Origin: a virus
Strand: one strand, 5' to 3'
Virus genome (UHGV): UHGV-0278189
DNA length: 41,032 nucleotides
The notes under the pieces are model-generated. The model did not search any database and was not told the DNA's origin. It worked only from the letters and a program-made list of their open reading frames with translations. The position numbers and the translations under genes are program-made. Shown piece by piece: positions 3,491 to 34,956 of this stretch. Each line of letters starts with the position of its first letter. Position 1 is the stretch's first letter.

Positions 3491-6400
3491 ACGTTCTTCC
3501 AGAGACTGAATCCGCTCTTTTATCTTATCCATTTCTCTGCGCTGCCATGCTGCCTCGATATAGAATAAGAGATCAGGTCTGACCCCCCATCTAGATCCTG
3601 CTGGCGTTATTTCAACGCGCTCAATGATGTCTTCCATTACCATCACTGGATTATCATCCTCATCAACAATGATGCTCCCGTCATTATCAGTCAGCGGCAT
3701 TTCCCTTTGGCCAGTAATGACGTCATCATATACTGCGGGATAATCGTCATAGCAAAGAAAGGCATAGCGGCATGTTGTGCTTTCTTCTTCCATGAGTCCG
3801 TGAGAAATAAGAACATCACGAAGTTGCTGCGCGATTACACCATGATGTATCCTCGCCCCTTCTTCCCCCTTTATAGCGACAGCGTTCAGCCATTTATAAG
3901 CGATATACCTGACGTCACCCCAGGCATCCAGCAATGCTTCGTCAGGAGAGACCGGCTCTGTCTTTAATGTTCCGTCACTGGTAACCACAGGATTGGAGCC
4001 AAGATAAACTGTCGAGAACCTGTTTCCCGGACCACCAAGAGCATTTACATTATCAAGATAAGGTTTAACATCTCCGTTCTCAAAAAGATGTTCGAGTGCG
4101 TTATATACCGCGCGACGTGGAGTACTGCTTCCGGAACCATGCAACGTTATCATTGCACCATCTGCTGAAGACGTTGTTTCACCGCCGCTAACGATTAATC
4201 TCTGAGCGGTAACATCATCAGACGGTACTTTCTTCGCAATAATGGCGTAATTACCCTCAAGTTTGACTTCCGCGCGAACTTGTCCTGATGTACCTGCATG
4301 GACAGTCAGTGACTGGACGGCAACATCATCTGTGAAATCAACGGGTACAGGAACCGTCCTCACGCCTGACGTCGACATAAAAGTAGGAAGCGTTCTGTTA
4401 GGAGTGGCTCCGTAGACAAAATCCCTTGAAACAAATTCTTCCTGTTTAATTTTCACCCTGAAACAATACAAATCAGCCGGGTGACCATCGTGAACATAAG
4501 GATATTTTCTGTTGTTATCCCCTATGCTCCATGGGTTTAGAAAGTCTTCCCCACCGAAAATGTAGTACAGCCAGTTGTCTTTGATACAAACTGAACCAAC
4601 ACCAACCGCAGAGTTAACTATTCCGCCCTGATAAATCTGATCAGTAACATTAACCCACTCTACATTATCCAGACTCCACTCATTGACGTTAACTCTGGTC
4701 ATAAATGTTCTTGGATAATTTCCTGCATAACGGTTATCAGGTTCTCCTCCTTCCCACTCACCAAATGCGCGCTCACTGCCAAAAATAATCAGCTCATCGC
4801 CAACTTTGGCAAAAGGAAGGTTTGAGTGATGAACATTATTTGGGAAGCGAAGAGAATTCCATGATGTACCTAAATCAGAGCTTCTGTGCAATGAACTACC
4901 GGGTTGAGTACTTAATGTCCCCCTGGTCGTCAGATACAGAATGCCATCATAATATTTTACACATGGCTCAGATGCATTCGCCTCATATTCTACAGGTATG
5001 CGTCTGCGAACAAAGCTACCAGGAGAACCGAAAGCATCAGAGAAATAGAGTATCCCAAGCTCGCGTGGACCAATATCACCATTATGGTAGCCAACAGCAA
5101 AACTGTTATCGCTAATCGTCGCAAAACTGTGAATCTCAGTAACAGGAGTGCTTCCGTCAACAAAAGAAGGAATAGTTCCAAGACTGGTTTTTCTCCATGG
5201 TGACGAGTGAAATGATGTGCCAAAACTCCAGTATCTACCCTCGTTATTCTGATCCACATCCTGGGTATTTTTCGTCGTAACTGTAAAGGTATTTTTATCA
5301 ATAACAGTAGTCACCGTCATATTCCCGGTAACACCTGTAACACCAGAGTTTGAGAAGTTGACAAAATCACCAGCAAATAATCCGTGATCAGTAATGCGAA
5401 TATAAGCGACTTGCTGATTTGCTGCTTTCGTTATACCACCATAAACGCGAAGGCTGCGACTCATTGGGCGATCCCACAACTCTGCAACCTGCAGTTTATT
5501 TCCGCTCACGGTCCGCGTCTCAATTACAGCAAAAAGGCGATTTCTGACAACCCCCATACTCATGCAGTGATAGTTAACTGTGGGATAGTTTTCATGTAAA
5601 TCTGTAAGCCATTCCGGCGTTGTCCAGGTCTTCCCGTCATCTCCTGAGCGAACCCATGCAACATGGAGGTTATTTACACCATGGCGGTCTCCAGCCATAA
5701 AAGGCGCATAGATGACATTGTCATATACAAACGTTTTATCCTGCGTCCAGGCGTTGTACCACGGTGTATCTGTAATTTTAAATAACTCTCCCTGGATAAA
5801 ATCTTCAGAAGCATAAAAAAGAGGTTGGCCCGGTATTCTCTCAAATAAAAAACGAGCATTTTTAAATCGACTGACATCCGGAAGAGTTGATACTTTAAAA
5901 GTAAGCCCTAATCCGTCAATTTTATAACCTGGAGATGAGGCTTCAAGGCACGCGCTTATTGCAGTGGAATCGTCATTTATACCATCACCAACAGCTCCAA
6001 AATCTTTGGGGCTAATAGCATCACGCATTTTATCCTGGAACGTTCGGTACACAGCCCCAGAACCATACTGAATAAACCAACCAAAACCACCAACAACCCC
6101 GGAGATTGCAGCATCGACATAATTACGCATTGAGCGATTATTTACAGCGTCCTGCTCAAATGATGGATCTGCAAGGTTAGAAATTTTGTTTTGCTTTGCA
6201 TCGTAATATTTTGCAAGCAAAGATGGTTTCATCAATGCACGTCTGAACCACCCAAAACATTGCTGGATCAGCATCGTCAGATAGTCAAAGGCATCTTCAT
6301 GCACCTCGGGGAAAAATTTTCCCTGATTACGAAGATCAGTCTCCTGCACCACATCAAGCACACGATCTATCGTAATTCGCCATCCAGCAGCAAGCGGCGA

Positions 6401-7939: not shown

Positions 7940-8205
7940 TTTACATCGCACTCCTCTTGTGCCATAGTAATCGGGCACTGGCAAAATCCAGTGCCGGGAT
8001 TGGTCTCCCGGATTACTACAGAGGCACATATGCCGCATAAGCGGTTTTTTTATGTGTAAAGCGCACCTATTCTATGGTGGGCTGTGTGGGGGCACCGAAA
8101 GGTGCGCCGGGTTCCTTTGTAGCCGGTAAGACCAACTCTGCACAGTTCACCACCATCTGATTGGTCTCAGCGGTGGTGATTAACCTAACTACAAAGGTGA
8201 TCGCC

Positions 8206-23967: not shown

Positions 23968-24260
23968 TCCTGTTCACTGGCCTCTTTGGCCATCTTCAAA
24001 TACTGTTCAGGGCAATGCGCCATAACGCGCTGAAACAGTTCCAGCGCCAGATTGCGTTGCCCCTCATTAAATGCCATTGCCATAGCATCCATCGGAGAGA
24101 TAGCGGAAAACACCCGGCCTTTCTCCAGCACCGACCAGACAACGCGACGCCCCTGTTCACTGCTCATGACAAAGCGAATGTCATCAATTTCACGCTGTGC
24201 CATGTCACGTTGCTTACGGGCGTTTTCTTCTTTCAGTTGATCGTCTTCGTAATCTGTCAT
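23964..24260 (-). CDS. Hypothetical head-module protein
   Basis: 98 aa; 4-nt overlaps with portal stop and scaffold start. Confidence 0.5.
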   Translation of the reverse strand: MTDYEDDQLKEENARKQRDMAQREIDDIRFVMSSEQGRRVVWSVLEKGRVFSAISPMDAMAMAFNEGQRNLALELFQRVMAHCPEQYLKMAKEASEQE

Positions 24261-25936
24261 TGTGATTGCCCACCCTGACCACTAACTGCATTCGCCATAG
24301 CTGACAAAACACTCGGATCCGAAGTTTTAGCTTCGCTTAGCGTCTTGGCACCCTGTGCCGCCGCCATCCCCATCGCCATCATTTGTTGCTGCTGTTGTTG
24401 CTGTGCCCGTTGCTGGCGAGCCTGCTCAACCTGTTCCTGCGGAACAATGACGGTTGGAGACACTCCGGACATATCAGCGAATGCATCGATCGCCTGATCA
24501 ACGTTGAGTTTGTCGAGAGCTTCTGGTTTCGCTTGCGCAAGTTGACCAATGAAGTTAACCGTGGACGCCAGACTGGACAGGCCGATAGACTTCTGCGCCT
24601 GAGCCATGACGGAAATGTATTCGACCTTCAGGGGCATACCTTCCATCACGTCTGGCGGTGGCGGCAGCATGTTTTTACGCACCATCATCGAGAAAGAGCG
24701 GTCAATGAGAGGATTAAGACATTCGTCGTTCAGGCGCTCCAGAACCGGCCCCAACATCAGAAGTTTTTCTTCTTTCATTTCGATCACCGCTTCCACAGGC
24801 ATCGAGCGGGTATTGATGTTCTGCAACATCATGAACAGATCGACAAAGTAGGCGCTGTTAATGATTTGACGAGTGTCCTGAATGTCTGCCACCAAATCTG
24901 CTGTACTGGGGTTAACCAGATAAGCAGGCCTGAAACCATCCTGACCAGTAATCTGATCGATATACGTGATGTCGCCAGGAAGAAGGGAGGCGCGCTGATT
25001 CTTGAGGGAAGTCGGAGCAACCATCGGCGGATTGGTGGCTTTATCAATCAACTGCGACTTGCGCTTCTGGAGAAGCTGCAATGCCTTAACAGGTCCAAGC
25101 GCCAGCATACCCGGGCATGATGATCCATAAACATCTTCGCCGTTAACTTCCCAGCGCGGAGCCATAATTGGAAACTCATCGAATCCGGACTCACGCAACA
25201 ACTTGTCGTTATCGCCACCAACCTCGTAATAAACCGATTTGAATGGCTTGTTCTTGCTATCCAGCTTCGATGTATCGCGGTCAATGTTCGGGTAAACCGA
25301 ATGCATCACTTCAATCCACTTCTCGTAGGTGCCGCTTTCCCACATGCTTTTTACGGATTCGCTGACGTTATTTAGCCCGAACTCCTGAACAAGCTGACGA
25401 ACAGTCATAGAGAACTTGCGAAAACAGGTGTCCACACTGCCACGAGGTGAGTTAGCCAGGTAGTAACTGCCTATCGGGAATGGCATTGTGCGAATGATGT
25501 CCTCGTCATCCTCCAGCACCGCCATTGCACCAGTGCTGTATGTGCCGAGGCTTCCGTATAACTGCGGAAGAGACTGGTAGAGATTCGACTTATTGAACAT
25601 ATCGTTCATGCGGTTCTGCACCGCCTCGAGCCACAACTTAACAGGACCATAATCCATCATTTCAGGATCTGGCGTAGCCAGGCGAAACCACGGACGCGCA
25701 GGGCTTGTGATGCCTGACATCATGCCGCTGGCGAGAGTGCGCGCCGCCATAGTCCCGGTCGAATCAATAATGCGTGTATTGCGTCGATCGTTACGGTTGA
25801 CTTCAGAAGTCAGAAAGCGGGAACCACGCGGGTTGATGTAATCACTCAACTCGCGCCAGTGCGGCTCGAACGACTGACGCTCGCTTTCAAGTTGTGCGAA
25901 CTGTTTGTTCAATCGCTCTTTAGTTGTTTCCGCCAT
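24257..25936 (-). CDS. Portal protein
   Basis: 559 aa; downstream of terminase; C-terminal poly-Gln tail; size typical of podophage portal. Confidence 0.65.
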   Translation of the reverse strand: MAETTKERLNKQFAQLESERQSFEPHWRELSDYINPRGSRFLTSEVNRNDRRNTRIIDSTGTMAARTLASGMMSGITSPARPWFRLATPDPEMMDYGPVKLWLEAVQNRMNDMFNKSNLYQSLPQLYGSLGTYSTGAMAVLEDDEDIIRTMPFPIGSYYLANSPRGSVDTCFRKFSMTVRQLVQEFGLNNVSESVKSMWESGTYEKWIEVMHSVYPNIDRDTSKLDSKNKPFKSVYYEVGGDNDKLLRESGFDEFPIMAPRWEVNGEDVYGSSCPGMLALGPVKALQLLQKRKSQLIDKATNPPMVAPTSLKNQRASLLPGDITYIDQITGQDGFRPAYLVNPSTADLVADIQDTRQIINSAYFVDLFMMLQNINTRSMPVEAVIEMKEEKLLMLGPVLERLNDECLNPLIDRSFSMMVRKNMLPPPPDVMEGMPLKVEYISVMAQAQKSIGLSSLASTVNFIGQLAQAKPEALDKLNVDQAIDAFADMSGVSPTVIVPQEQVEQARQQRAQQQQQQQMMAMGMAAAQGAKTLSEAKTSDPSVLSAMANAVSGQGGQSQ

Positions 25937-25950
25937 TTCAATGACTCCGG

Positions 25951-26157
25951 TTACTGACCAAGCAGCGTTTTACCGCTGGTATTAGCGGTTGATGTGTCGC
26001 CCTGAGAACCGGTAAGCAGCGTAGAACTACGACCAGCAGCAGCGCGACGGCGACGAGTTTCTTCGTCGCGGGCATCAACAACGGCGGCATCCTGCTCCTG
26101 TGGTGCTGCCTGAACTTCTGGTGTTGCAGGCACTGATGGTGAGCTACCCATGCACAT
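25951..26157 (-). CDS. Small acidic hypothetical protein upstream of portal
   Basis: 68 aa; GGAG RBS 8 nt upstream; preferred over overlapping 25938..26177 frame. Confidence 0.4.
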   Translation of the reverse strand: MCMGSSPSVPATPEVQAAPQEQDAAVVDARDEETRRRRAAAGRSSTLLTGSQGDTSTANTSGKTLLGQ

Positions 26158-26246
26158 ATCAATGACTCCGTACGCAATTAAATTATTACCAATTTAACCA
26201 CATGTGATTTATTTATCGTAGATACTTGACATTTAACGCACTAATT

Positions 26247-26263
26247 ATTACCTTTCAGGTAAG
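26247..26263. promoter_or_regulatory. Operator-like palindrome TTACC-N5-GGTAA (copy 5)
   Basis: aTTACCtttcaGGTAAg in non-coding region between head operon and tRNA; TTGACA at 26226-26231 nearby. Confidence 0.6.
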
Positions 26264-26584
26264 CAAAGAGTTCATTCCGGTTATTAACCTGACTGGCTTG
26301 TCGTTAAATTGAACAGGTGGGGTGAGCTTTTATTTTGAGCAGTACGGTGTATGGCACATGCGCCGATAGCGGTCTGGATACGTTTAAGGGGCACCCTCCC
26401 TTGCTATGGCAAACGAACCAGGTAGCCGGAATGTGCAAGTCGAGCGGTTTTATTCCGCGCACGGGGATTCACCATCCCGGCGATTCGGTGTGACACCTCG
26501 GAAGAGACGAGGGTGCAACGATGAGAGCATTTATGGAGCCGCGACAAAGTGTGGTGCCTTAACAGGCTAAGTGCTCTCAGCGTT

Positions 26585-26661
26585 GTGGCATTAGCTCAGT
26601 TGGACAGAGCAACCGCCTTCTAAGCGGTTGGTCGCAGGTTCGAATCCTGCATGCCACGCCA
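26585..26661 (+). tRNA. tRNA-Arg (anticodon UCU), phage-encoded
   Basis: 77 nt; acceptor stem GTGGCAT/ATGCCAC, D-arm GCTC..GAGC, anticodon loop CTTCTAA, T-arm GCAGG-TTCGAAT-CCTGC, discriminator G and encoded CCA. Confidence 0.85.
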
Positions 26662-26704
26662 GAATCACGCCTAAGGACCGTGATGCCAGAAGTTCCAGGT
26701 GCTT

Positions 26705-26752
26705 GGCGGTGATGGTTTCCCTTGAAGGACTATCACCGCCCTTGCCCTTTTT
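26705..26752 (+). terminator. Hairpin with T-run in tRNA 3' trailer (putative terminator or processing structure)
   Basis: GGCGGTGAT-17 nt-ATCACCGCC followed by cttgcccTTTTT. Confidence 0.4.
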
Positions 26753-26830
26753 ACAGCAGGACGCCATTGCGATGACTTCATGCTGTAAACCAGTACAGCC
26801 ACGGAAGGCATAACTCATTGCTTCCAGTTC

Positions 26831-26854
26831 GCCCGGTTCGCCGGGCATTTTTTT
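26831..26854 (+). terminator. Rho-independent terminator 12 nt upstream of the 26866 start codon
   Basis: GCCCGG-ttcg-CCGGGC followed by aTTTTTTT. Confidence 0.7.
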
Positions 26855-26865
26855 AAGGTGAGATT

Positions 26866-27240
26866 ATGAACGACCAGCAAATCGAAAAAGAAATCGTTGA
26901 GAAAGGTAAAACGGCACCTCGTGTAACTCCTGAGAAAATTGAAGGTCTCATTTGCAGTGAGCATTTTTTTACTGCTGCGCAGGGGGATCATCAGGCTAAA
27001 GAAGATGACCTTATTTATAATCCAGAGCCTTATGTCGAAGCCACCCCTGATGCTCTGCACCTTCTCACTTTCTGCGTCCTGGTGCTGCGCAACGGCTTCA
27101 CCGTCACCGGAGAGAGCGCCTGTGCAAGCCCGGAAAACTTTGATGCAGAAATTGGTCGGAAGATTGCCCGACAGAATGCTGTAAACAAAATCTGGATGCT
27201 TGAAGGTTACTTGCTGAAGCAGAAGTTAAGCGAGCAATAA
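26866..27240 (+). CDS. Conserved phage protein of unknown function (possibly N4 gp49 / Sf6 gp66-like family, tentative)
   Basis: 124 aa; AAGGTGAG RBS; opposite strand to flanking terminase and head genes; family assignment is weak recollection. Confidence 0.6.
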   Translation: MNDQQIEKEIVEKGKTAPRVTPEKIEGLICSEHFFTAAQGDHQAKEDDLIYNPEPYVEATPDALHLLTFCVLVLRNGFTVTGESACASPENFDAEIGRKIARQNAVNKIWMLEGYLLKQKLSEQ

Positions 27241-27330: not shown

Positions 27331-28806
27331 TTAAGCATAGGGATCGTAATCTGTGATGGCCTTGCCTTGCTGGTTCTGCTGCCCGGGAATTCGCAGACGC
27401 TTAGACACAGGGAACGCAAACGTCAGCAGTAGCGCATCGCCTTTACCCGGTGAACGCCCAAGCCGCTCCTTGATATCTTCCTTCGGTTCGATAACGATTT
27501 TACCGTCCACTCGAACTTTGTACTCTGCCGCCGACAGGTCGTCTGCTGTTTCCTGGTCATCCAGCATGCCGCCCAGCCTCAGCCATGTCTTGCATGAATT
27601 GAACATCTCCCCACGCTTGTTGAGCATCTGCGGGTCAGTAGACGCGCCACCGAACGGAACAAGTTGCCATGTACGACCCCAGCCGTCACCGATTGACTTC
27701 AAACCGGTTCCGTAACCGAAGTCGATGAACACCGCGTCAGCCTGATACTGGTCTTCAAAGTCAGCGATACGCTTCGCCATAATCAGATCGTCGGTAGTCT
27801 TGTTGCCAGTCCACAGCACCTTACTGTGTAGCCCCTGCCGCAGGTATATCACAGCGTCATCAACGCCGGAGTATGCCGGGTCAACGCCGATTATCACCGG
27901 AGCATGTGCAACCTGCGCAGCGGTTACCACCCGTTTCATTGCCTCGTCAGTAAGACCGGTAGGGATAAACTGCAATTCAGATGCATCAGGGAATATGCCA
28001 CGCACACGGATTTTAACGAAGTCGCTGTCTTCCCCGTAGTCATCAACCCATTTCTGCAACTGCTGTTTGTTAGTGCCTTCCACCGTCCGGCTGTCAATCT
28101 GCGCAGTTTTCCAGCGGTGTTTATATTTGCGGAAACATTCGCGAAAACGCCCGGTGTTACGTGTAGGGTTTCCGAACGCCACCCAAATAATCTCAGTGTC
28201 TTCGTCCGTAAGCGCACCCTCGGCAACTTCCCACACCAGATCCGCAATGTTCGACGCTTCATCAAACACCACGATGATGCGTTTGCGCTCGTTGTGTAGT
28301 CCGGCGAATGCCTCGGTGTTGTGCTCAGACCAGGGTATTGCGTCAGCCCGCCACCGCTTGTCGTGCCCTAGGTCATTGCTGTACATCGCGGTAGCGGTAC
28401 AGGTAAACCAGTCTTTCGTGATAGCAAGGTTCGACCACTTGATAATTTCCGGCCAGGTCTTCGTTCGTAGCTGGTTGTCGGTGTTGGCGGTCACCACGAC
28501 CTTACAATCCTCGCAAGTGGACATGCCCCAGTTGATCAGCATTGAGATGAATGCGGATTTACCAATACCGTGACCAGAAGCGCGTGCCAGCATAAGCGGC
28601 TGATAGCGCGTCTCTGGATTCTGCAGGTGATCACGTATCTCTCGGAACGCATCAGCCTGCCACTGACGTGGGCCGGTGGCATGTGCCAGTTCAGTCCCCT
28701 CTTCCCCCCATGGGAACGCATAGAGGGCATAGCCAAGCGGATCGTGAGTGAACCCTGCAATATCCTCGATTAACTGCTCTTCAGGAGATAACGCTGTATC
28801 TGTCAC
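27331..28806 (-). CDS. Terminase large subunit
   Basis: 491 aa; Walker-A-like ARASGHGIGKSAF near N-terminus; C-terminal nuclease-like region; small-subunit gene directly upstream with 4-nt overlap. Confidence 0.8.
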   Translation of the reverse strand: MTDTALSPEEQLIEDIAGFTHDPLGYALYAFPWGEEGTELAHATGPRQWQADAFREIRDHLQNPETRYQPLMLARASGHGIGKSAFISMLINWGMSTCEDCKVVVTANTDNQLRTKTWPEIIKWSNLAITKDWFTCTATAMYSNDLGHDKRWRADAIPWSEHNTEAFAGLHNERKRIIVVFDEASNIADLVWEVAEGALTDEDTEIIWVAFGNPTRNTGRFRECFRKYKHRWKTAQIDSRTVEGTNKQQLQKWVDDYGEDSDFVKIRVRGIFPDASELQFIPTGLTDEAMKRVVTAAQVAHAPVIIGVDPAYSGVDDAVIYLRQGLHSKVLWTGNKTTDDLIMAKRIADFEDQYQADAVFIDFGYGTGLKSIGDGWGRTWQLVPFGGASTDPQMLNKRGEMFNSCKTWLRLGGMLDDQETADDLSAAEYKVRVDGKIVIEPKEDIKERLGRSPGKGDALLLTFAFPVSKRLRIPGQQNQQGKAITDYDPYA

Positions 28807-29477
28807 TGATTGCCATCCTGACGTTCTTTCAGTCTCTTCCTGGCTGCCGCTATGCGATCAGCAATTGTCACATTCACATTAACATCCAGGCGTTCTTTGA
28901 ATGCGTTGACGTCGACGTGCTTACCAATCAGTTCGAGGTTCTTCACCTTGTCAGGCCATTTAATTTTTTTGAGGATTGTCTCTATCGAATCCTCGTTCAT
29001 GTTCATGATGGTCGATGACAGATCAAAGCCACTAAGCGTAGTGCGCCAGATTTTCGGCCACTCGCGGATTGGCTTAAGGCTCCCATCGTCGTTGAGGATG
29101 TCGATCACGTCCATCTGGTCGATCTCCACCAGGCGCATGAGAACGTAATCAGCACTGACGCGCATTCGTTTGTTGCGCTCTTCCATCAGCTCGGCAATCC
29201 GTTTTTGAATGCGTTCATCGCGCATCATGAGACTGGCTTTAACTGCCGCTGTATTTGGGGAGAATCCTGCGTTAATCGCAGCCTGAGTCTGGTTTTCAGG
29301 CGTTTGGATGTATGACTGGCAATAAGCCTCCTGCATTGCTGTTAGTGGCTTAAATTGCGTTGATTTGCGTTTATAGGTTTTAGGTTCAGCAGGCATCATA
29401 ACCACCGTGGTAATAGTTACCGTTGTGGTAATAGTACCATGCAAAATAAAGCCGCCATAGTTGGCGGCAGTATTCAA
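28803..29477 (-). CDS. Terminase small subunit
   Basis: 224 aa; HTH-like segment LTAMQEAYCQSYIQTPENQTQAAINAGFS typical of small terminases; true start could be internal ATG at 29399. Confidence 0.6.
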   Translation of the reverse strand: MNTAANYGGFILHGTITTTVTITTVVMMPAEPKTYKRKSTQFKPLTAMQEAYCQSYIQTPENQTQAAINAGFSPNTAAVKASLMMRDERIQKRIAELMEERNKRMRVSADYVLMRLVEIDQMDVIDILNDDGSLKPIREWPKIWRTTLSGFDLSSTIMNMNEDSIETILKKIKWPDKVKNLELIGKHVDVNAFKERLDVNVNVTIADRIAAARKRLKERQDGNQ

Positions 29478-34927: not shown

Positions 34928-34956
34928 TTGACATCAAACCATATACGCATAATTAT
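34928..34956 (+). promoter_or_regulatory. Putative pL-like sigma70 promoter
   Basis: TTGACA at 34928-34933; AT-rich -10 candidates ~16-17 bp downstream; overlapped by operator copy 9. Confidence 0.35.

Follow-up and report, generated by a model that had tools for sequence, protein, structure and literature searches.

To our knowledge, the put RNAs of phage HK022 are the only RNA-only solution known so far by which lambdoid phages without N carry early transcription past terminators. Put is about 70 nucleotides (nt) long, folds into two stem-loops and is present twice per phage, downstream of PL and of PR; it lies just behind a repressor-controlled early promoter after cI and is followed by terminators, then by early genes. 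It suppresses termination in cis, an activity blocked by mutations in the zinc-binding domain of the RNA polymerase beta' subunit. We describe here an RNA element found in the same kind of setting, in the virus genome UHGV-0278189, a stretch of 41,032 nt analysed at its full length (hereafter the window). On its + strand, positions 26345-26585 almost certainly encode a single copy of a covarying, conserved RNA for which Rfam 15 has no family and which combines the helices P1, P2, P4, P5 and P6, a pseudoknot and a near-invariant 19-nt strand. This copy is located about 90 nt downstream of a promoter-like site overlapped by an operator, and two terminator-like hairpins and an accessory open reading frame (ORF) come after it; in temperate phages that are unrelated, the same RNA directly follows early promoters under repressor control.

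Like put, the element is carried by N-less phages and has no evident phage protein partner. It differs from put in being larger and more complex (about 170-240 nt, at least five helices plus the pseudoknot), in occurring once per phage and in its link to a transfer RNA (tRNA) or to tRNA-like domains. Neither a covariance model of the core nor a hidden Markov model found a match in the HK022 immunity region, the sequence of the putL region is unrelated, and a second, putR-like copy was detected neither by nhmmer nor by the covariance model with filters off. We therefore do not consider the element a member of the put family, because its size, architecture, copy number and sequence all depart from it.

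Other described RNAs share some of its features. The rrn leader (boxA/Nus) and the Bacillus EAR element are likewise promoter-proximal leaders ahead of a long untranslated structured transcript with tRNAs, and EAR is also a pseudoknotted leader RNA. Unlike the rrn leader, the element has no free boxA: its UGCUCUUU-like strings are the paired, covarying 3' strand of P6, and a boxA/boxB-like reading of P5 and P6 was rejected for the same reason, the strings being base-paired and covarying. P4 CI RNA and P1/P7 C4 RNA are leader-embedded phage RNAs with tRNA-like processing signals in early or immunity operons; they are, however, antisense RNAs of about 70-80 nt with defined targets, whereas the conserved strand of the element has no target in the window, the structures are unrelated and the C4 matches of the window lie elsewhere. 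GOLLD, ROOL and the T4 stable RNAs C/D are elaborate covarying phage RNAs of unknown function beside tRNA genes, dispensable in the laboratory. They are found mostly in Firmicutes and metagenomes, measure 500-800 nt and are in Rfam, whereas the present element is enterobacterial, smaller and promoter-proximal and matches none of them. Finally, DicF and RprA resemble only the 3' tail, which in relatives consists of a hairpin, UUGCUGUGUGUAGUCUU and a terminator; in P1, the operon that carries the element also has an annotated dicF-like region. None of the scores reaches its gathering threshold, and this tail is outside 26178-26584. We rate the element as a new structural class within known kinds, namely leader or phage regulatory RNAs; should its target be something other than the polymerase, it could prove to be new as a category.

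No known identity emerged from the searches. Rfam 15, at gathering and at permissive thresholds, returned nothing for the core in the window and 12 relatives, nor did it at E <= 1 on six relatives, and the sole match in 25900-26900 was the tRNA at 26585. The Rfam scan that an earlier note on this sequence had called for matched no family in 26178-26584 even at E <= 10; EAR, if present in Rfam 15, is thus negative, because no family reached that value in the region. A full-text literature search, including the sequence as DNA, as RNA and as reverse complement, returned no description of the element, and the published Pas small RNAs (sRNAs), Minerva and Gifsy-1/Rtc were found to be unrelated to it.

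Architecture and covariation of the conserved RNA

The window belongs to the epsilon15/phiV10-type Uetakeviruses (97-98% identity to phiV10 across the test stretch), with tRNA-Arg(UCU) and ORF124 on the + strand, placed between the terminase and the gp3-like gene (Table 1). The earlier note had described 26178-26584 as a 400-nt non-coding, highly structured region upstream of the tRNA. Its non-coding character holds: between the end of the gp3-like gene (26157) and the tRNA (26585) there are only mechanical ORFs of 36-54 amino acids (aa), none convincing. The structure is confined to a shorter part, since 26345-26585 is conserved and structured, whereas 26178-26344 comprises the putative promoter, the operator and a poorly conserved leader. 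The + strand folds better than its shuffles (z = -3.2; z = -1.5 for the - strand). Among the pairings proposed by the earlier note, the hairpin 26464-26478 is helix P4 of the conserved structure and covaries. The nested pairing of 26391-26398 with 26509-26516 connects the P5 3' strand with the interior of a variable hairpin and is missing from the consensus, and the hairpin at 26426-26457 (CCGGAAU/AUUCCG) is, like that pairing, specific to the window, its 5' arm falling inside the invariant 19-mer, which is locally unpaired in relatives.

Table 1. Features of the element and of its surroundings in the window
Feature	Position	Strand	Remarks
-35-like hexamer TTGACA of the putative early promoter	26226-26231	+	conserved geometry
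Repressor operator copy ATTACCTTTCAGGTAAG	26247-26263		overlaps the putative, weak -10 TACCTT (26249-26254), 17-nt spacer from the -35
5' leader, predicted start site to conserved core	26262-26344	+	conserved only among Uetakevirus relatives
Helix P1	26345-26353 with 26357-26365	+	9 base pairs, loop GCA; 97.7% of cells paired
Helix P2, base UCUGG/CCAGG	26373-26377 with 26418-26422	+	variable interior bearing a CCUUG motif
Near-invariant 19-nt strand GGUAGCCGGAAUGUGCAAG	26421-26439	+	identical in all BLAST-found relatives
Variable hairpin region P3, then conserved GCACG	26440-26463	+	13-24 nt, sequence variable
Helix P4	26464-26468 with 26474-26478	+	pair types A:U, C:G, U:G, G:C
Pseudoknot, P4 loop CACC with GGUG	26470-26473 with 26487-26490	+
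Helix P5 CCUCG/CGAGG	26496-26500 with 26508-26512	+	conserved loop GAAGAGA
Long hairpin P6	26516-26529 with 26572-26585	+	variable tip; final base is tRNA position +1
tRNA-Arg(UCU)	26585-26661	+	ARAGORN; Rfam tRNA 73 bits
Conserved hairpin AUCACG-CCUAAGGAC-CGUGAU	26664-26684	+	after tRNA or tRNA-like domain in many unrelated loci
Terminator-like hairpin (GGCGGUGAUGG.../...CUAUCACCGCC) then U-run	26697-26752	+	weakly DicF-like
Second intrinsic terminator-like site, GCCCGGTTCGCCGGGC then ATTTTTTT	26831-26854	+	12 nt ahead of ORF124 start
ORF124, sole protein gene of the unit (accessory slot)	26866-27240	+	Pfam Phage_gp49_66, E = 1.8e-34
Portal	24257-25936	-	late genes
gp3-like ORF	25951-26157	-	late genes
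Large terminase	27331-28806	-	late genes
Small terminase	28803-29477	-	late genes

The covariation analysis that had been suggested was run, and compensatory changes across homologues uphold a conserved structure. A hand-derived structure was evaluated on a MAFFT alignment of 44 representatives below 93% identity to each other, with pairwise identity down to about 50%. In this alignment 88.6% of the cells pair, compared with 30-48% when the 3' partners are slid, 26 pairs are changed on both sides and the covariation score was reached by none of 500 shuffles. In the alignment of 87 distinct rows described below, pair 10:22 of P1 is read as G:C in 50 sequences and as A:U in 35, and pair 36:113 of P2 (a helix whose interior measures 20-44 nt) as C:G in 55 and as U:A in 30. 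In that alignment two-sided changes affect four of the five pairs of P5 (e.g. C:G in 44 and G:C in 33 sequences); in the MAFFT alignment they affect 12 of the 14 pairs of P6, an 18-nt inverted repeat, 89% complementary, in which 74% of the cells are paired and whose tip carries T-arm-like inserts in relatives. One pseudoknot pair changes from C:G into A:U, and does so in two distinct backgrounds, the mEp460 group and, within Kosakonia, L136 compared with L144 (L numbers designate loci here and below). A covariance model of the core (R1) retrieved 97 copies across 98 sources and exactly one in the window (26340-26515, 145 bits), where nothing else appeared with filters off. In its alignment of 87 distinct rows, 93.5% of the cells pair versus 24-48% when slid, with a covariation score of 0.309 against at most 0.084 in 500 shuffles; this alignment leans toward the structure because it was fitted to the model, and the MAFFT result is the unbiased one.

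The same alignments bear on whether the conserved object is an RNA at all. Alternatives would be a gene for a small protein, a signal acting at the DNA level (a site of single-strand initiation or of recombination), the remains of a tRNA or a chance structure: some records annotate hypothetical proteins over the element (e.g. mEp460 gp37 and mEp390 gp36) and, in a stretch this rich in GC, a frame without stops is common. However, core lengths range from 150 to 182 nt and fall into all residues modulo 3 (38/32/16), hairpin interiors vary by non-triplet steps, G·U pairs (288) far exceed A·C (50) and adjacent tRNAs are always co-oriented. These three observations identify a + strand RNA rather than a gene, and the compensatory changes together with the shuffling result speak against chance structure. 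The earlier idea of a degraded tRNA-like element also fails, since 26178-26584 contains no tRNA call by ARAGORN and no sub-threshold tRNA hit at E <= 10. We consider every such explanation without an RNA to be effectively refuted, with a negligible residual probability. The 'small RNA' of the earlier note was thus right as to RNA, on the grounds of covariation, G·U asymmetry and non-triplet indels, and wrong as to small: the core measures about 170 nt, or about 240 nt with P6, within a predicted unit of about 490 nt.

Several other pairings and motifs were rejected. The closing helix GUGC/GCAC of P3 was dropped, being paired in only 47% of cells. The long-range pairings proposed by RNAalifold (GCACAU/AUGUGC, CGGU/GCCG and UGUGCAAGCC/GGUGUGACA) sit on invariant columns, and GCACAU/AUGUGC clashes with the covarying helix P1. 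The element is not a CsrA sponge either, with GGA present 8 times for 9.5 expected.

Distribution and genomic context

The earlier note had envisaged that the region might be poorly conserved among related phages; the opposite was observed, and conservation reaches far past related prophages. By distant BLAST, window 26344-26588 shares about 82% identity with DNA that carries no annotation in lambdoid phages such as cdtI, mEp460, 2H10 and Stx2c phages, and window 26344-26506 shares about 80% with P1, P7, D6, SJ46 and RCS47; the element is also found in Klebsiella phages, in mEp390 and in a Stenotrophomonas phage. About a third of complete E. coli genomes contain it (1837 of 5426, 1472 of them with at least 80% coverage), as do 591 plasmids, mostly P1-like, and an exact scan of IMG/VR with the 19-mer gave at least 120 contigs, corresponding to at least 110 distinct sequences. 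Thus, a strongly covarying, elaborate RNA has stayed unannotated in heavily studied genomes, those of P1, of Stx-converting and other lambdoid prophages and of E. coli: among the matches listed, annotation by PGAP (Prokaryotic Genome Annotation Pipeline) beneath the element consists only of the adjacent tRNA and one hypothetical-protein call. The hypothetical proteins mEp460 gp37 (L005 2443-2811), mEp390 gp36 (L009 2578-2820) and PhiV10p04 (L002 2692-2943) either overlap the structured RNA or lie opposite the tRNA, in antisense, and were probably annotated in error. One IMG/VR contig (L027) carries two tandem cores about 800 nt apart, at 3997-4157 and 4804-4962, both on the - strand.

From Escherichia, Salmonella, Klebsiella, Kosakonia and Erwinia to a Stenotrophomonas phage, the 19-nt strand does not vary. 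An independent anchor, consisting of the P1 hairpin plus AGCGGTC, was scanned over one genome per species and yielded 22 true copies, 21 in genera of Enterobacterales and one on a short contig labelled as a Bacillota metagenome-assembled genome; the 19-mer is exact in 21 of the 22 genomes and has one mismatch in the remaining one. An Acidovorax match to the anchor pattern was attributed to chance. Such invariance across genera suggests a conserved partner. In the window the 19-mer occurs once at up to three mismatches, and no second match that could be an antisense target was found there on either strand with the same tolerance, the strand tested being the 19-mer only.

The context of the element was surveyed in 130 loci, and terminators and promoters were scanned in 105 loci. 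In 66 of the 130, the element comes directly after a cI/LexA-like repressor gene that has the same orientation; 28 belong to Uetakeviruses and have tRNA-Arg immediately 3', and about 11 are of the P1-like kind, flanked by tRNA-Ile immediately 5' and by ban 3'. In cdtI, mEp460/Stx2a_WGPS2 and mEp390 the repressor gene comes first, followed by an intrinsic terminator and by a promoter with palindromes that resemble operators, and the core comes 50-70 nt further on; BUCT708 has repressor, promoter-like site and core without a terminator in between, which brings the immunity types to four in all. In these N-less lambdoid phages the promoter ahead of the core is PL-like and stands at the position of PL, and no N-like ORF was found downstream of the core in any lambdoid locus. 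In phage P1 the element is inside the C1-controlled ban operon. Given that the RNA was associated with early repressor-controlled promoters in every temperate context examined, we consider it to be part of early repressor-controlled transcription.

In the window, both features reported by the earlier note, a TTGACA hexamer and an operator copy, were found again; the hexamer lies 17 nt ahead of TACCTT, and the operator is a perfect copy of ATTACC-N5-GGTAAK, a motif present 33 times in the window for 4.3 expected. The hexamer and its 15-nt gap to the operator are retained in SPN9TCW, in epsilon15 and in a Klebsiella relative, with a different spacer sequence, and the homologous operator site of epsilon15 is annotated 'repressor, lysogeny' in GenBank. 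A comparable TTGACA-operator layout is present at 34955 in the window. As a strict sigma-70 scan, which detected a promoter in only 31 of the 105 loci and none in this stretch of the window, misses the site, we infer the promoter solely from its conserved geometry. Outside the Uetakeviruses, the leader between promoter and core is swapped for unrelated ones of 6-123 nt. The palindromic form of the operator, ATTACC-N5-GGTAAT, has at least 12 dispersed copies in the window (6711, 7830, 7923, 8964, 26247, 29398, 29416, 31832, 33796, 34181, 34893 and 34955), a scatter that suggests a regime like that of P1 C1, with one repressor over many dispersed early promoters.

The tRNA, tRNA-like domains and terminator-like sites behind the core

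Because its last helix ends on base +1 of tRNA-Arg, the RNA is physically the 5' leader of the tRNA-Arg precursor, and RNase P would be expected to cut at 26584/26585, separating the two. In this physical sense the earlier suggestion of a tRNA leader is correct; a tie to this particular tRNA is not supported, since 84 of the 130 loci have no tRNA nearby. In lambdoid relatives the slot of tRNA-Arg is taken, directly after P6, by a tRNA-like domain, with an acceptor-like stem, a linker, a D-like arm and a T-like arm running straight into the acceptor 3' strand. Its layout is 7-2-4-8-4 nt, a variable insert, a T-like stem of 5 base pairs with a 9-nt loop, and a CACCAC 3' end. Both stems covary, the D-like one as GCGC/GCGC, GCAC/GUGC or GCCC/GGGC and the T-like one as GCCGG/CCGGC, GCUGG/CCAGC or GUCGG/CCGAC. 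tRNA models do not call these domains in the relatives, and a generic 7-mer acceptor-pairing statistic was uninformative for them.

Further downstream, the BUCT708 counterpart of the AUCACG/CGUGAU hairpin aligns with hairpin 2 of RprA. A terminator-like site follows the core in 88 of the 105 loci, the first one at a median of 326 nt past the 19-mer. In the near-identical phiV10 locus (L002) the terminator hairpin has -22.8 kcal/mol and its U-run lies 321 nt past the 19-mer, equivalent to about 26742 in the window, where the DicF model scores 13 bits (E = 1.4), below its gathering score. The second site is homologous to an epsilon15 stem-loop annotated as a rho-independent terminator, and the ribosome-binding site of ORF124 comes directly after it. 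In relatives the 3' tails reach 27.7 bits for DicF (RF00039; L085) and 48.8-50.2 bits for RprA (RF00034; 50 bits in L007), for gathering scores of 48 and 70, respectively. The tails at L007 2631-2750, L097 8398-8518 and L085 802-854 align with full-length RprA (seed UUGCUGUGUGUAGUCUU plus terminator) or with DicF and, judging from these alignments, may be phage-borne mimics of host sRNAs.

These modules recur in other arrangements. In Klebsiella phage SopranoGao (L008 2490-3422), the core is followed over about 930 nt, to the end of the record, by P6-like hairpins (CAAC...GUUG) alternating with three tRNA-like domains; the annotated 56-aa ORF is probably spurious. The leader of the P1 ban operon (L004 170-830) has these modules in a different order, with a cdtI-type tRNA-like module, an annotated dicF-like terminator and a P6-like hairpin. 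Since that hairpin occurs there without the core, the modules are evidently shuffled between phages and separable from it. Early phage leaders can therefore be built as arrays of RNA modules that have been shuffled (the core, long hairpins, tRNA-like domains and tails resembling DicF or RprA). This matters for the annotation of prophages, since a number of 'hypothetical proteins' have probably been miscalled, and for our view of the embedding and expression of phage tRNAs.

Such arrays could point to a core that serves as a leader or processing scaffold for tRNAs and tRNA-like units, where it would assist folding, shield the 5' end or direct maturation by RNase P, III or E of the tRNA and of a 3' sRNA-like piece. 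The junction of P6 with tRNA base +1, the repeated P6-like hairpins and tRNA-like units after the core in SopranoGao and other loci, and the RNase III site annotated near the element in the epsilon15 record are consistent with this role; moreover, wherever a tRNA is nearby it is immediately adjacent and on the same strand (46 of 46 loci). A scaffold would, however, need neither an invariant 19-nt strand nor a pseudoknot, P1 retains the core without P6 and after rather than before its tRNA, and the P1 ban leader has P6-like hairpins with no core. We thus regard processing as an improbable primary function.

A riboswitch-like sensor of a host metabolite or tRNA, setting the read-through of the early operon, could be proposed on the basis of the invariant junction nucleotides, the pseudoknot and the variable peripheral hairpins, in a 5' leader placed upstream of terminators. 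Yet more than 200 nt separate the core from the first terminator without any alternative pairing to link the two, the downstream genes differ in each context (tRNA, ban, yfdQ cluster) and the P1 copy is without a platform, so that a sensor appears highly improbable.

Possible modes of action of the core

The function that we tentatively prefer, by analogy with HK022 put and with less than even confidence, is that of an RNA acting in cis on the elongation complex to give terminator read-through. Briefly, after infection or induction the repressor would leave the operator and RNA polymerase would transcribe the leader RNA. The folded core would then act in cis on the elongation complex, as put does, and render it resistant to the following intrinsic terminators and to Rho. 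The long untranslated array, made of P6, the tRNA or tRNA-like domain and the sRNA-like terminator, would be expressed as a result, together with the genes that follow, namely ORF124 here and, in lambdoid phages, the N-less early-left operon, and RNase P would release the RNA from the tRNA at the junction given above. This proposal fits, at the level of sequence, the promoter-proximal position, the terminators ahead of the first genes, the lack of an N-like gene and the layout of HK022, where cI, PL, RNA and terminator come in the same order (PMC9378689). In Stx2a_WGPS2 the first early-left gene begins about 135 nt after the terminator, and no promoter was seen by eye between terminator and first gene in this phage or in the window. 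An expert remark also states that N-less phages of this kind may use RNA antitermination (PMC12315714).

A number of observations weigh against read-through in cis. The element is found once per phage, including where the locus extends over cro into the beginning of the operon on the PR side, whereas HK022 has both putL and putR. With about 170-240 nt and tRNA-like appendages, it is far more elaborate than the 70 nt of put would require. The promoter and terminators are consensus-level calls, and in the case of DicF in the Qin prophage an internal sRNA terminator is read through without a dedicated antiterminator. In P1 the core is a bare one in mid-operon, without P6, after tRNA-Ile and 2.4 kb from the promoter, with no terminator-like hairpin seen by eye in the 100 nt between core and ban. 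SopranoGao has behind its core only the doubtful 56-aa call, which overlaps RNA modules, and epsilon15 lacks the core and yet keeps a terminator and the ORF. In the latter phage (L001 3043-3135) the promoter, the operator and helix P1 are kept and everything from P2 through the first terminator, tRNA included, is deleted; its GenBank record annotates sites for integration host factor and RNase III nearby, on the opposite strand.

These last three cases would suit a stand-alone early RNA that is freed by RNase P and acts in trans, binding or decoying a conserved host factor or a defence protein, the locus being a counter-defence or host-takeover cassette. Promoter, about 460 nt of RNA and intrinsic terminator together form the layout of an RNA gene, a tRNA-like domain is right at the expected RNase P cut and the invariant 19-nt strand is readily explained by a conserved partner. 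The element is also dispensable, in epsilon15 as shown by the deletion and in P1 by CRISPR interference, where knock-down of trnI/ban was non-essential (PMC10695390), and the neighbouring slot contains accessory or anti-defence genes, e.g. a Tad2-like one. On the other side, no partner protein co-occurs in the context survey, the 19-mer has no complementary target in the window, and action in trans does not demand the strict place behind early promoters or the co-orientation with downstream genes. We therefore judge it rather unlikely, while keeping it as the main rival; if true, the element would define a novel class of large phage RNA whose host target is conserved universally, and its 19-nt strand would point to a conserved host partner worth finding.

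Returning to read-through in cis, its full form would make the core a new structural class of RNA-only elongation-complex regulator, the missing early antiterminator of N-less lambdoid phages, also present in P1 and in Uetakeviruses, heading arrays of hairpins and tRNA-like units that are dismantled by RNase P. We see this as a real prospect, if one on which we would not stake an even bet, and it offers a candidate answer to how N-less lambdoid phages carry early transcription past terminators.

Finally, the window itself contains RNAs of the immunity type, above the Rfam gathering score and on the + strand: isrK at 7975-8051 (74.7 bits) and the C4 antisense RNA at 8070-8157 (78.6 bits). This pair corresponds to a P1/P7-type immI RNA module in a Uetakevirus, and two lambdoid phages, mEp460 and cdtI, also have it upstream of their antirepressor genes. 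The use of C4/isrK RNAs elsewhere in the window raises the question of whether the element itself might be an attenuation or immunity RNA of the P4 CI or P1 C4 type, in which a processed leader piece pairs with the nascent leader and causes premature termination. It is an early-operon leader with terminators just downstream and RNase P-type processing signals, and CAAC/GUUG and GUGG/CCAC segments recur along the arrays. Local hairpins account for these complementary segments, however, the invariant strand lacks an antisense target in the window and the promoter is already repressor-controlled, so that a second immunity layer is not obviously needed; we find attenuation very unlikely.

Two features of the downstream region were also noted. 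The slot of ORF124 looks like an early accessory or counter-defence slot, its content being variable: in Klebsiella phage ST512-KPC3phi13.3 (L010 3185-3706) it encodes a protein with a Tad2-like anti-Thoeris domain. Lastly, the interval from the DicF-like terminator to the first early-left gene contains, in cdtI-type phages, a long inverted repeat, ACAAAACAGAGAAGA...TCTTCTCTGTTTTGT (L006 2889-2990 and L156 3487-3578).

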